64,000 nt of DNA from Enterococcus cecorum (GTDB taxonomy: Bacteria; Bacillota; Bacilli; Lactobacillales; Enterococcaceae): assembly GCF_052119425.1 (NCBI RefSeq), contig NZ_JBQKFH010000011.1, forward strand, positions 3,155 through 67,154. The letters are read 5' to 3'. This document shows, piece after piece, positions 3,065-37,679 of the stretch (within the stretch, counting starts at the first letter, position 1; each line of letters begins with the position of its first letter). The notes under the pieces were generated by a model. That model searched no databases, was not told the DNA's origin, and saw only the letters and a program-made list of their open reading frames with translations. The translations under genes and the position numbers were made by a program.

Positions 3065-5107
3065 TTATTCTTCAGTTGTATCATCTGGTGTGATTGTCGT
3101 ATCTTCATCAGATTGCGCTTGTTTTTTCGCATCACGTTCTTCTAGGGCACGTTTTGCTTCTTCATAACTTTGCGCTTTTTCACTTGGAAATTCAGATTCA
3201 TCTTGTGCAGGCATTTTCCCTGTTTCAAACAAGGACTTGATTGCCTTAGCATCTAATGTTTCAAACTCTAATAATTTTTCAGCAATTAATTTATGTTTGT
3301 CACGATGCGTTTCGATGATTTCACGTGCTTTATCATGAGCTTCCATCAAGATACGGCGAACTTCTTGGTCAATTTCATAAGCAATTTGTTCAGAATATGC
3401 TTTAGTTTGACCATAATCACGACCAATAAAGACTTGATGATTACCTTCGTATTGCACAGGTCCAAGCTTGTCACTCATACCATATTCAGTCACCATGCTG
3501 CGCGCTAAGGCTGTGGCTTGTTCAAAGTCATTGGAAGCCCCGGTAGATTGAACACCAAAGATAATTTCTTCAGCTGTACGTCCACCTAATAGACCAACAA
3601 TTTGTTCGAACATATCGTCTTTGGTTAACAACATTTGATCTTCTTTTGGTAAAGCAATCATGTAACCACCGGCGCGTCCACGAGGGATAATCGTTACCTT
3701 GTGTACAACACGCGCACGAGAAAGCACTAAACCAACAATGGTATGTCCGGCTTCGTGATAGGCCACCATTTCGCGCTCACGTTTACTAATGACGCGGTCT
3801 TTCTTAGCAGGACCAGCAATCACGCGGTCTTCAGCTTCATCAATATCAGAAGCATCGATTTTCGTTTTATTACGACGGGCAGCCACTAAAGCCGCTTCGT
3901 TTAAGACGTTTTCCAAATCAGCCCCGGCAAATCCTGGTGTTTGTTGGGCGATTACTTTCAAGTCGACGTCATCAGCCAATGGTTTATTTTTCGCATGGAC
4001 GCGTAAAATAGCTTCACGACCTTTGACATCGGGACGACCGACTAAAATTTGACGGTCAAATCGGCCTGGACGCAATAACGCTGGATCCAAGACGTCTGAA
4101 CGGTTGGTAGCAGCAATGACGATTACGCCTTCATTTCCACTGAAACCATCCATTTCAACAAGCAATTGGTTAAGGGTTTGTTCACGTTCATCATGTCCGC
4201 CACCCATACCAGCACCACGTTGACGACCCACTGCATCAATTTCATCGATAAAGATAATGGCTGGTGAGTTTTTCTTCGCAGTATCAAATAAATCACGTAC
4301 ACGACTTGCTCCGACCCCGACAAACATTTCTACAAAGTCTGAACCAGAGATAGAGTAAAATGGTACGCCTGCTTCACCGGCAACTGCTTTGGCTAATAAA
4401 GTTTTACCGGTTCCTGGAGGTCCTTCTAGTAACACCCCAGCTGGAATACGTGCACCTAATGCTGAGAAGCGACGTGGATCTTTTAAGAATTCCACCACTT
4501 CGACTAATTCTTGTTTTTCTTCTTCAGCCCCAGCTACGTCAGAGAAACGCACGCGGTTGGCTTTTTTATCGGCTTCTTTGGCTTTTGATTTACCAAAGTT
4601 CATCACGCCACGGCCACCACCGCCACCACCGGCTTGTTGACCCATAATCATGTAGAAGAAGAATATCATGATGACAAACGGCACCATGCTAATTAAGAAT
4701 GAAATCCAAACACCGCTGCTAGATTCTTCCTTAATGGTTGTATCTACGTTATGTGTTGCTGCCAAAGATGTAATTTCACTTAATGTGGAATCATTTGGCA
4801 AGACAATCGTTGTAAAACTCGTTGACTTCGTGCTAGTTGAACCTAGAATCGAAAGTCCACTGTTATTACTTACTGTTTGTTCATCTTTGTATTTCCCGCT
4901 AATTTTGTAGACGCCATTTGCCGGTTGTACGGAAAATGACTTGATTTTACCGTCTTCTAATTGCTCAGTAAATTTCGAGTAGTCAATCGATGGTGACTGA
5001 CTGCTACCATTGCCGACAAAGAAGATTAAAATCCCCGCCATTGCAAGAAGCACAAGGATGTAATATAAGGTATTTTTTAACATACCATTATTATTTTTTC
5101 TGTTCAT
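3065..5107 (-). CDS. ftsH: ATP-dependent zinc metalloprotease FtsH
   Basis: AAA+ Walker A GPPGTGKT, second region of homology (SRH) motif, HEAGH zinc site, N-terminal TM segments. Confidence 0.95.
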
Positions 5108-35345: not shown

Positions 35346-35804
35346 TTAGGACTGACTGGCTTCATTCGCATTTGCTTGCGTGTCTGTTTGGGGCTTTTCT
35401 TGTGTGCTACTCGTTGATTCTTGGGTCTTTTCTTGGTCGCTTTCAGTCTTATTTTGATTGTCTTGATTGGTATTTTGGTTATTGGTATTTTGATTTTGTT
35501 TCTCTTCTGTTGCGTTATTTTGACTCTCGGTATCTTGACTGGTTGTCGTCTGCGCTTTATCAGTGGTTTGGTCTTTTTTTGTCGGTGTACTTTCCGTCGA
35601 ACTAGTTGTTGTTTGCGTTTTTTCTTCTTTTGTCGTACTCGTTTTTGGCGTGGAAACAACCGTGCTCGTAGTCGTTGTACTCGTTGGTGTTTTTACGCTT
35701 GGTTGACGGTAACTTTCACTATTGATAATTCCCGTTGTGGTCGCAATTAATACCGATAAAGTTAAGACGGCAATAGGTTTTACAATCGGCGCTACTTTCT
35801 TCAA
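35346..35804 (-). CDS. Secreted low-complexity Thr/Ser/Gln/Asn-rich protein
   Basis: TTG start with AGAGGGAAAGG upstream; signal peptide MKKVAPIVKPIAVLTLSVLIATTTGIINS; the mature part is about 75% T/S/Q/N/E/K. Confidence 0.5.
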   Translation of the reverse strand: MKKVAPIVKPIAVLTLSVLIATTTGIINSESYRQPSVKTPTSTTTTSTVVSTPKTSTTKEEKTQTTTSSTESTPTKKDQTTDKAQTTTSQDTESQNNATEEKQNQNTNNQNTNQDNQNKTESDQEKTQESTSSTQEKPQTDTQANANEASQS

Positions 35805-35978: not shown

Positions 35979-36299
35979 TTATTTCAATTGATTCACTACG
36001 TCCTGTCTCTTATTCAATATACGGACAACAAGAATTTGAGATTTTATTTTTATTAATTTGTAAAAGACGATATAGCTTTTCACATTAAAATATCTCAATC
36101 CTAAAGATGTCCACGGCTCATCAGGAAACACAGGATATCTTTCTGGAAATATTCTTAACTTTTCGATTGCAGAAATAATGGATAATACGTACCTACTAGC
36201 ATATTCTTTTGAAGAGTAAAAAGTTAAATACTCTTTAATATTTATCAAATCATTATCCGCTTCTTTTGAGTATACAATATTCCAATAAACTGAGCTCAT
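35979..36299 (-). CDS. Type II toxin, RelE/ParE family
   Basis: MSSVYWNIVYS...VVRILNKRQDV C-terminal signature. Start re-called at 36299, which has a GAGGAG SD; the upstream antitoxin stop lies 5 nt before it. Confidence 0.75.
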   Translation of the reverse strand: MSSVYWNIVYSKEADNDLINIKEYLTFYSSKEYASRYVLSIISAIEKLRIFPERYPVFPDEPWTSLGLRYFNVKSYIVFYKLIKIKSQILVVRILNKRQDVVNQLK

Positions 36300-36303
36300 C
36301 AAG

Positions 36304-36606
36304 TTACTCCTCAAATTTTGCCTTTACTTCTGCAACAGTTAAAACTCTACCCTTTTCATAATCATCCAAGCCTTTTTGAATTTCACGGTCAAAGGCTTCT
36401 TTGGTTAAGGAATCATAATTTACTGGTTTTTGCGGTAGTTTTATTTCAAATGGGATTCTCTGTTGATTCACCACTTGTTGTAAAAACATGCTTAACGCGG
36501 TTGACATTGGGATTTGTAGCTGTTCGAGAACTTTTTCCGCTTCTTCTTTTAATTCGGGCGTCACTCTGGTAAAAATACTAGCTGTTTTTTTTGATGATAC
36601 AGACAC
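36304..36606 (-). CDS. Type II antitoxin, RelB/DinJ family (ribbon-helix-helix)
   Basis: ASIFTRVTPELKEEAEKVLEQLQIPMSTALSMFLQQVVNQQRIPFEI closely parallels the E. coli DinJ N-terminal domain. Confidence 0.75.
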   Translation of the reverse strand: MSVSSKKTASIFTRVTPELKEEAEKVLEQLQIPMSTALSMFLQQVVNQQRIPFEIKLPQKPVNYDSLTKEAFDREIQKGLDDYEKGRVLTVAEVKAKFEE

Positions 36607-36696: not shown

Positions 36697-36752
36697 GTAA
36701 AAAGGATGTCAAGCAATGTACGATTCTTGCCTCACATCCTGTTATGATTCAT

Positions 36753-37106
36753 CTATCTTCTAATTGGCATATACTCGGTTAAATCATAGAACTGTGATTT
36801 ATCCACTGCATTGGCACGATATTGCCGATTGATACCCGCCTCATTAGCATAGTGGTTCAATTCGTTAATCAACCCTTCTTCTTGCGGTGTAAAATGTAAA
36901 CGAGCATCCACTGCGGTTAGATAAATATAGTTTACGAGCTTACTCACCAAAATCGGCGGAGAAGGATTGGTGTCGATTTTTTTGTAAACTTGCAAGAGAC
37001 AATCCGTAATATCTAACCATGATGTCGCTTGTTCTTCCTTCGTATGCGCAATTAGTAACTTATACAACTCATGTACCTTTTCTTTTACAGCTGATACTTC
37101 CATCAC
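36753..37106 (-). CDS. Class IIa bacteriocin immunity protein homolog (enterocin A immunity family), orphan
   Basis: VHELY...LVNYIYLTA..RLHFTPQEEGLINEL...AGINRQYRANAVDKSQF aligns along its length with my recollection of enterocin A immunity protein (..LVNYLYFTA..IRFTEYQEELIRNL..AGINGLYRADYGDKSQF). Confidence 0.65.
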   Translation of the reverse strand: MMEVSAVKEKVHELYKLLIAHTKEEQATSWLDITDCLLQVYKKIDTNPSPPILVSKLVNYIYLTAVDARLHFTPQEEGLINELNHYANEAGINRQYRANAVDKSQFYDLTEYMPIRR

Positions 37107-37376
37107 AAACCCCCCCCTCTTTAGCTATACTATCACTTCGAATTTCTTTGCTCACCCCATATTTAAGCGTTTACATTTTATCCGCTTAAAAAAGGAAAAT
37201 CAAAAATTCAGAATTTTCCCATACCCTTATTTTACTCCTATTTTACTATTTACTCAAGAGATAAGTATTGGTTTCCGATTGACATCCAGCTTAGTTAAAG
37301 TATGCTATAATAAGCTAGGCCATGTACCTCTAGTCAAGAGTATTCGTGGTACGTTCAGCAAAAGTGAGGCAATCCG

Positions 37377-37679
37377 ATGGAAGTTAACGAATTAATCAAC
37401 CGCAGTATTCAAATTAGACAACGTTACCATGAATTAGAACGCCAGCATCATGGCAGCGAATGGTCAGTTGAAGAAGATCTTTTAGCTCTCAGTAATGATA
37501 TTGGCAATCTCAATCGACTAGTGATGACCAAATTTGGCCGCTATTATGATGAGACACCCTATACTTTAGAACATAAATTAGCAGAAAATGTCTGGTGGTT
37601 AATTGAATTAGCGAATCGATTAGACATAGACATTGAACAAGAGCTCGAAAATTTTTTAACCGAAAAAGAACAATTATAA
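37377..37679 (+). CDS. MazG-like nucleotide pyrophosphohydrolase domain protein (small YpjD-like)
   Basis: 100 aa; EVNELINRSIQIRQRY...ENVWWLIELANRLDIDIE resembles the all-alpha NTP pyrophosphatase fold. Confidence 0.65.
   Translation: MEVNELINRSIQIRQRYHELERQHHGSEWSVEEDLLALSNDIGNLNRLVMTKFGRYYDETPYTLEHKLAENVWWLIELANRLDIDIEQELENFLTEKEQL

Follow-up and report, generated by a model that had tools for sequence, protein, structure and literature searches.

The closest described counterpart of the gene reported here is EntA-im, Enterococcus faecium's immunity protein for enterocin A (2BL7/2BL8, group A), whose gene lies directly downstream of entA in the operon of the producer. As a rule, an immunity gene that is cognate shares a transcript with its bacteriocin gene. 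According to PMC2806384, the immunity family divides into groups A, B and C, and immunity genes of the "orphan" type have been known since the work of Fimland, Eijsink and Nissen-Meyer 2002; orphans are homologues that have no cognate bacteriocin in the same locus, and for them cross-protection from foreign class IIa bacteriocins is presumed. Cryo-EM work, as summarised in PMC10783117, has immunity proteins entering the bacteriocin-opened man-PTS IIC/IID pore from the cytosol and blocking leakage. For the second feature of interest, a G-run ahead of the start codon, a described parallel is espR of Mycobacterium tuberculosis, in which a poly-G insertion in the 5' UTR re-folds the UTR and measurably raises translation (PMC11898584).

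The gene studied here, from Enterococcus cecorum, encodes a member of the same Pfam family as EntA-im, with 35–40% identity over aa 6–105. The two share the motifs VHELY, LVNYxYxTA, AGINxxYRA and DKSQF and, in our model, the same antiparallel four-helix bundle. EntA-im has 103 aa and ends at DKSQF, whereas the subfamily of the E. cecorum protein adds a conserved tail of ~11 aa, Y..(T/S)E..MP(I/R)R(R). The gene for EntA-im sits in a bacteriocin operon; the E. cecorum gene stands alone, like the described orphans. It differs from them in that it forms a cassette with a promoter and terminator of its own, present species-wide and under purifying selection; its protective role is one that we infer by homology.

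A homologue in E. hirae (L037; P0007) has 46% identity and belongs to the same C-terminal tail subfamily. That gene begins at the base after the stop codon of a 71-aa PF01721 YGNGV bacteriocin gene (sec-dependent, with cleavage at ...VEA|), so the tail subfamily includes cognate YGNGV immunity genes. The E. hirae gene is paired with a bacteriocin; none accompanies the E. cecorum gene. The E. hirae bacteriocin and immunity genes occupy positions 3785–4342 of their contig (GCA_018088745.2), on which a resolvase and a gene for a ParE-like toxin are found too; the locus looks like one in a mobile or plasmid context.

Identity of the immunity gene and its product

The window, by which we mean the whole 64-kb stretch of E. 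cecorum DNA analysed, carries the bacteriocin immunity coding sequence on its minus strand at 36753..37103 (116 aa, ATG start, TAG stop included). The open reading frame extends to 37106 (36753..37106, minus strand), with adjacent in-frame starts, GTG at 37106 and ATG at 37103. A sequence-only reading of the window had taken the GTG and given a product of 117 aa. The reading frame is real, but the length had to be revised. The commonest public allele (L026/L027) reads GTTATG, with GTT in place of the GTG; public gene calls give 116 aa in every case; and the 117-aa form was absent from the database look-up. We rejected GTG 37106 on these grounds. Because the upstream GTG is not conserved and all public calls are of 116 aa, ATG 37103 is almost certainly the true start.

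The sequence-only reading had assigned the gene to the enterocin A type from motifs shared with the enterocin A immunity protein and had proposed an HMM search against PF08951 (EntA_Immun) as a check. That search gave a clear match of 44.7 bits (E = 1.6e-11, profile positions 5–73 of 73), against a gathering score of 22.1. PF08951 was also present in all 42 database homologues bar one fragment; no NCBIfam model matched the protein. Searching PDB sequences with phmmer aligned aa 6–105 of the query with aa 5–103 of EntA-im (2BL8) at E = 8.2e-14, and all of these motifs, VHELY, LVNY(I/L)Y(L/F)TA, FT..(E)E.LI, AGIN..YRA and DKSQF, are found in this alignment.

Structure prediction pointed the same way. 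An AlphaFold (AF2) model built from an alignment of 32 homologues (alignment A1) had a mean pLDDT of 87.5 and four helices (aa 3–22, 26–42, 49–66 and 73–88) forming a four-helix bundle, with the C-terminal tail DKSQFYDLTEYMPIRR less ordered. Foldseek against the PDB placed EntA-im (2BL8/2BL7) best, with target-normalised TM of 0.75–0.84, followed by PedB (2IP6), with Mun-im lower. The protein is hydrophilic (GRAVY −0.40, maximum KD19 1.10), and a hydropathy scan found no transmembrane or hydrophobic segment. Class IIa immunity proteins are small (about 90–120 aa), soluble, cytosolic, antiparallel four-helix bundles with a C-terminal part that is flexible, and this 116-aa product is predicted to be one as well. 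The HMM match, the 2BL8 alignment, the model and the Foldseek ranking all bear out the enterocin-A-type, group A-like assignment, and by sequence the product is clearly a class IIa (PF08951) bacteriocin immunity protein.

The nearest database entry, 98% identical, is a "bacteriocin immunity protein [Enterococcus cecorum]". Homologues of 40–50% identity were found in E. hirae, Carnobacterium, Dellaglioa, Pediococcus and others; DKSQF is invariant in these, and they have in common the tail ...MPRR, which EntA-im does not have. The gene is thus an uncharacterised new addition to a well-known immunity family, already named automatically by NCBI. Among 17 nucleotide alleles dN/dS was 0.058, with dS of up to 0.38, purifying selection was seen along the full length of the protein, and the reading frame was intact in 36 of the 36 copies examined. 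With dN/dS near 0.06 and every one of those 36 copies intact, the gene appears to be maintained by selection, and we read it as an ordinary, well-conserved, core-like gene in E. cecorum.

Cassette boundaries, flanks and the search for a bacteriocin partner

A promoter-like sequence, TTGAGT-17-TAAAAT (37229..37257, minus strand), is conserved when nine diverse loci are aligned. The nine become homologous just upstream of the −35 element, even where the DNA further upstream is unrelated, and in one of the loci with foreign upstream DNA (L048) homology to the window stops at 37262. At the other end lies an intrinsic terminator (36698..36740, minus strand), a 13-bp interrupted stem-loop at 36740..36703 followed by U5. 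Its hairpin folds at −17.8 kcal/mol (z = −4.0) and recurs in L001; homology with an alternative downstream context stops at 36699. With a promoter and a terminator of its own, and homology breakpoints at ~37262 and 36699, the gene forms a self-contained cassette of ~560 bp. As read from these features the cassette would be monocistronic, consisting of the promoter, a leader of ~118 nt, a strong Shine-Dalgarno (SD) sequence, the 116-codon coding sequence and the terminator. A second promoter-like site (37203..37175) was set aside; it is conserved neither in leader haplotype B nor in L029.

Both cassette edges (~37262 and ~36699) are recombination or insertion breakpoints, as seen in L001, L015, L026, L030 and L048. 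Downstream, the window has RelB/ParE, a Ser/Thr-rich protein and DUF6681, with variants at other loci that lack ParE or the whole pair; another downstream type in E. cecorum has two RpiR regulators and a PTS EIIC. Upstream, loci come with or without a divergent 100-aa ORF, with unrelated sequence (L026/L030/L034), with Tn916-like int/xis (L015), or with a replication-protein-like gene of 348 aa (L048).

Several neighbours of the cassette were noted. Directly 3' of it in the window (35979–36606, minus strand) are a RelB/DinJ antitoxin gene (100 aa, TIGR02384, 68.5 bits) and, next to this, a ParE/RelE toxin gene (111 aa, PF05016). Since across E. cecorum loci the pair is present, reduced to RelB, or absent, we take it to be a small variable insert. 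The 152-aa ORF at 35346–35804 (minus strand) encodes a hydrophobic N-terminal segment and, after it, a long low-complexity region rich in Ser, Thr, Gln and Asn; it matches no Pfam family, overlaps ORFs in alternative frames, and lies beside DUF6681 at other loci too. Its product is probably secreted or surface-anchored. On the upstream side, the divergent 100-aa ORF (37377–37679, plus strand) has no Pfam or NCBIfam match. In the public contig collection its exact sequence occurs in 327 blocks; it is missing from L026, L030 and L034.

The window was searched in several ways for a bacteriocin that the immunity protein might serve. YGNG occurs nowhere in the six frames of the entire 64 kb, and no double-glycine-leader ORF of 25–110 aa was found there. 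Searches by tblastn with six class IIa peptides matched neither the window nor any E. cecorum locus; as a positive control, the E. hirae locus was matched by all six. A Pfam scan of 28 window ORFs, about half of those of at least 90 aa, included no C39 bacteriocin exporter, man-PTS component, histidine kinase or response regulator. The larger ORFs scanned have ordinary chromosomal functions (FtsH, Kup, PepF, a POT transporter, cytochrome bd with an ABC pair, UDP-galactopyranose mutase, a copper ATPase). A family profile search found no second immunity copy in the window. The possibility that the 270 bp upstream hold a decayed bacteriocin gene was also considered and rejected; motif search, ORF search and tblastn found nothing there.

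Across ~45 loci with several different flanks, a bacteriocin gene was never adjacent. A cognate immunity gene is marked by an adjoining, co-transcribed YGNGV gene, and this was seen neither in the window nor at the E. cecorum loci. Having no bacteriocin neighbour, the gene falls in the orphan subclass, with its family membership unaffected. The earlier reading had called the gene an orphan with no bacteriocin precursor upstream or nearby. Our searches agree with this and support orphan status for 27 kb on one side of the gene and 37 kb on the other, with no linked bacteriocin, transport or regulatory gene found within those distances.

The G-run in the ribosome-binding region

The sequence upstream of the immunity ORF start is AAAGAGGGGGGGGTTTGTG. 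Within it, the translation-initiation region AAAGAGGGGGGGG-TTTGTG (37104..37122, minus strand) comprises an SD purine tract (37110–37122) and a 6-nt spacer (37104–37109), whose T-run is polymorphic as well (TTT or TT). The SD region reads AAAGAGGGGGGGGTTTGTGATG, just as the sequence-only reading had it, and the run of eight G described there is real; it lies at 37110..37117 (minus strand; C8 on the plus strand), however, 3 nt away from the 37113–37120 first given. This G8 is the sole G/C run of at least 7 in the window. Dinucleotide shuffles of the window contained 0.44 such runs on average, with at least one in 30 of 100 shuffles, and a G8 somewhere in 64 kb of such composition is not surprising.

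We surveyed the tract in 43 independent copies, namely that of the window, those of 36 loci obtained by looking up the exact protein and by scanning for patterns, and 6 reached via a neighbouring gene. Most (35/43) have the interrupted sequence GGGGAGGG, a canonical GGAGG SD placed 7 nt from the ATG, with zero length changes among them. This group covers all of the allele diversity and both leader haplotypes, and it includes Ca. E. stercoripullorum as well as the complete genome CP010062.1. The pure G-run was found in the other 8 copies, only in the near-clonal haplotype of the window, with identical protein. Its states were G8TTT in two (the window and L002), G8TT in four (L003, L005, L006 and L007), G7TT in one (L001) and G9TT in one (L004), requiring at least three tract-length events within the haplotype. 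Flanks of these contigs differ by 0–2 SNPs over 1–6.3 kb; L001 and L003, for example, align over 4,871 nt with 0 mismatches and 1 gap. A Fisher test of 6/8 against 0/35 gave p = 4.6e-6, a crude figure, since the sequences are not phylogenetically independent. The variant contigs are short-read metagenome assemblies. One assembly each has the G7 state (SRR22535152) and the G9 state (ERZ28574963 / SAMN11097735), while SRR23493883 is among those with G8TT and SRR33888816 among those with G8TTT.

Two loci, L029 and L045, have the leader of the window but retain the interrupting A, which indicates that the pure run arose by a single A-to-G transition from GGGGAGGG. The tract appears to be length-unstable, because G7, G8 and G9 vary while kilobases of flank differ by 0–2 SNPs. 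It would be the most mutable site of the locus, and its variation fits slipped-strand mispairing. The earlier proposal of a slippage site, against which a length invariant across isolates would have counted, is borne out by the finding of G7, G8 and G9 among near-identical contigs. As in contingency loci, a homopolymer of at least 7–8 nt lies in the translation-initiation region and its length differs among near-identical contigs; but a contingency repeat is kept across a species or lineage, and here 35 of 43 copies are interrupted. From this distribution we read the G8 as a recent accident of one lineage, not a conserved contingency repeat.

Calculations suggest that tract length matters little for translation. 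The SD:anti-SD duplex energies were −16.3 kcal/mol for GGGGAGGG, −15.4 for G8TTT, −15.8 for G8TT, −16.3 for G7TT and −17.6 for G9TT; they were computed with the canonical Firmicute 16S 3' end, which may differ from that of E. cecorum, and such thermodynamic predictions of SD strength are crude. Folding of the whole leader gave the same structure at every tract length, with the SD 0.69–0.86 unpaired. Poly-G would pair with the CCUCC of 16S rRNA via G.U wobble, and all natural lengths have at least 7 G with the 3' end of the run 5–6 nt from the ATG. With wobble pairing retained and the run ending at that distance, only a slight change in translation is expected. We predict that tract length alters translation at most modestly and that the polymorphism is neutral or weakly modulating; a real effect on expression of G.U versus A-U pairing, or of TT versus TTT spacing, is possible. 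The tract lies in the 5' UTR, so a change in length would not shift the reading frame. The conserved promoter is ~110 nt further upstream, and its −35/−10 spacing would not be affected either; a role of the tract as promoter spacer was discarded. The likeness to espR is in a G-run upstream of a start codon that varies in length among natural isolates, and the difference is that the espR indel re-folds its UTR (PMC11898584), whereas the E. cecorum tract has no predicted change in structure or pairing.

The leader itself (37104–37222, minus strand) exists as two haplotypes that are ~60% identical over ~50 nt, between the conserved promoter and the SD (alignment A3). Leader haplotypes are mosaic with coding-sequence alleles; L029 combines the leader of the window with a coding sequence having 21 synonymous differences. 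A search for Rfam families in the leader gave no match better than E = 0.25. Within the ~118-nt leader, the pyrimidine stretch UUUUCCUUUUUU (37188..37199, minus strand) is complementary to the SD purine tract, and RNAalifold, given 22 distinct leaders, chose a long-range helix between the two. In this helix 99.3% of cells were paired, versus 83–84% when the partner was slid by one column; two adjoining helix pairs covary, reflecting one haplotype split. Partition-function probabilities for the helix were 0.87 in L026, ~0.37 in L028/L030 and ~0 in the window, where the pyrimidines are predicted to pair with AUAUGGGGUGAGC instead. The stretch might, speculatively, be an anti-SD element of translational control. 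Sequestration of the SD dependent on G-run length was rejected for the haplotype of the window, whose leader folding did not predict it.

Alternative explanations and proposed function

The sequence-only reading had gone further and suggested that slippage in the G-run alters SD strength or spacing and makes immunity phase-variable, as at a contingency locus. Variation in tract length (G7/G8/G9; TT/TTT) among contigs with otherwise identical flanks is what this would require, the poly-G indel in the 5' UTR of M. tuberculosis espR offers a precedent (PMC11898584), and where the SD pairs with leader pyrimidines, as in some haplotypes, a tract change could in principle shift the equilibrium. The suggestion did not hold up well in other respects. 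A run that is missing from 35 of 43 copies and goes back to a single substitution was not selected as a mutable repeat; it is specific to one lineage, lies outside the ORF, so that no frameshift results, and is not between −35 and −10. All lengths keep at least 7 G at 5–6 nt from the ATG, with nearly constant predicted duplex energy and accessibility. Phase variation by this route is, on these models, unlikely, and we think it quite improbable as an account of the locus. A related idea, that a new hypermutable SD tract and the leader anti-SD tune orphan immunity in a recently expanded clone, making a contingency locus at birth, seems more doubtful still; if true, subpopulations would trade the cost of immunity against protection from the pediocin-like bacteriocins of competitors. 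The length variation might instead be an artefact of sequencing or assembly. Every variant contig is from a short-read metagenome assembly, the singleton G7 and G9 states are possibly artefacts of assembly or population consensus, and homopolymers are known trouble spots, a caveat of a kind also raised in PMC4488443. Yet G8TT was assembled four times, in at least three projects, and G8TTT twice, and among 35 comparable assemblies the interrupted tract never changed in length. A homopolymer of 8 nt is also short for consensus-level error with Illumina reads, and we regard an artefact as rather unlikely.

Doubts about the gene itself take two forms. The E. cecorum genome could hold a cognate pediocin-like bacteriocin, or a controlling regulon, elsewhere, in which case the gene would not truly be an orphan; the search covered 64 kb, and homologues can be cognate, as is the E. 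hirae gene beside its YGNGV bacteriocin. Cognate genes are co-transcribed as a rule, however, and the E. cecorum gene is equipped with a promoter and a terminator of its own; no bacteriocin gene adjoined it at ~45 loci with several flanks, and a search of the literature turned up no class IIa producer described in E. cecorum. A hidden partner seems distinctly unlikely to us. Alternatively, the EntA_Immun fold might serve in regulation or under stress, for example, and not in protection from bacteriocins. Fusions of PF08951 with HTH or PMSR domains exist, what orphans do is presumed only (PMC2806384), and the gene is core-like in a species without known bacteriocin production. Set against this, the protein closely resembles two immunity proteins that are proven or cognate, also in the specificity-bearing C-terminal half, it retains the invariant DKSQF...R tail, and purifying selection acts over its entire length. 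We give such an alternative role very little credence.

We consider it likely that the locus is a conserved chromosomal orphan class IIa immunity cassette, and that the G8 is a by-product, neutral or weakly modulating, and not an on/off switch. By homology with EntA-im and PedB, the cytosolic four-helix protein would bind the mannose-PTS IIC/IID receptor when a pediocin-like bacteriocin has wedged it open, and its C-terminal tail would plug the pore from inside. E. cecorum would in this way be protected from the YGNGV bacteriocins that other enterococci of the gut, and lactobacilli, produce. In one lineage the SD GGGGAGGG, found species-wide, would have become an uninterrupted run through one A-to-G transition, and this run would now slip at replication to give G7–G9. 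E. cecorum CECO0009 was not inhibited by synthetic EntA, EntP or SE-K4 and was sensitive to L50A/B (PMC10855908 Table 2). This insensitivity is consistent with protection by the immunity gene, and a non-susceptible man-PTS fits it equally well.

The G-run offers a clean natural case of a single transition in an SD sequence creating a slippage-prone tract. E. cecorum is an emerging broiler pathogen, and the species-wide immunity cassette is a candidate cause of the insensitivity of one tested strain to enterocins A, P and SE-K4. Orphan immunity genes of this kind may help to explain why pediocin-like bacteriocins, proposed as alternatives to antibiotics in poultry, fail on some targets.
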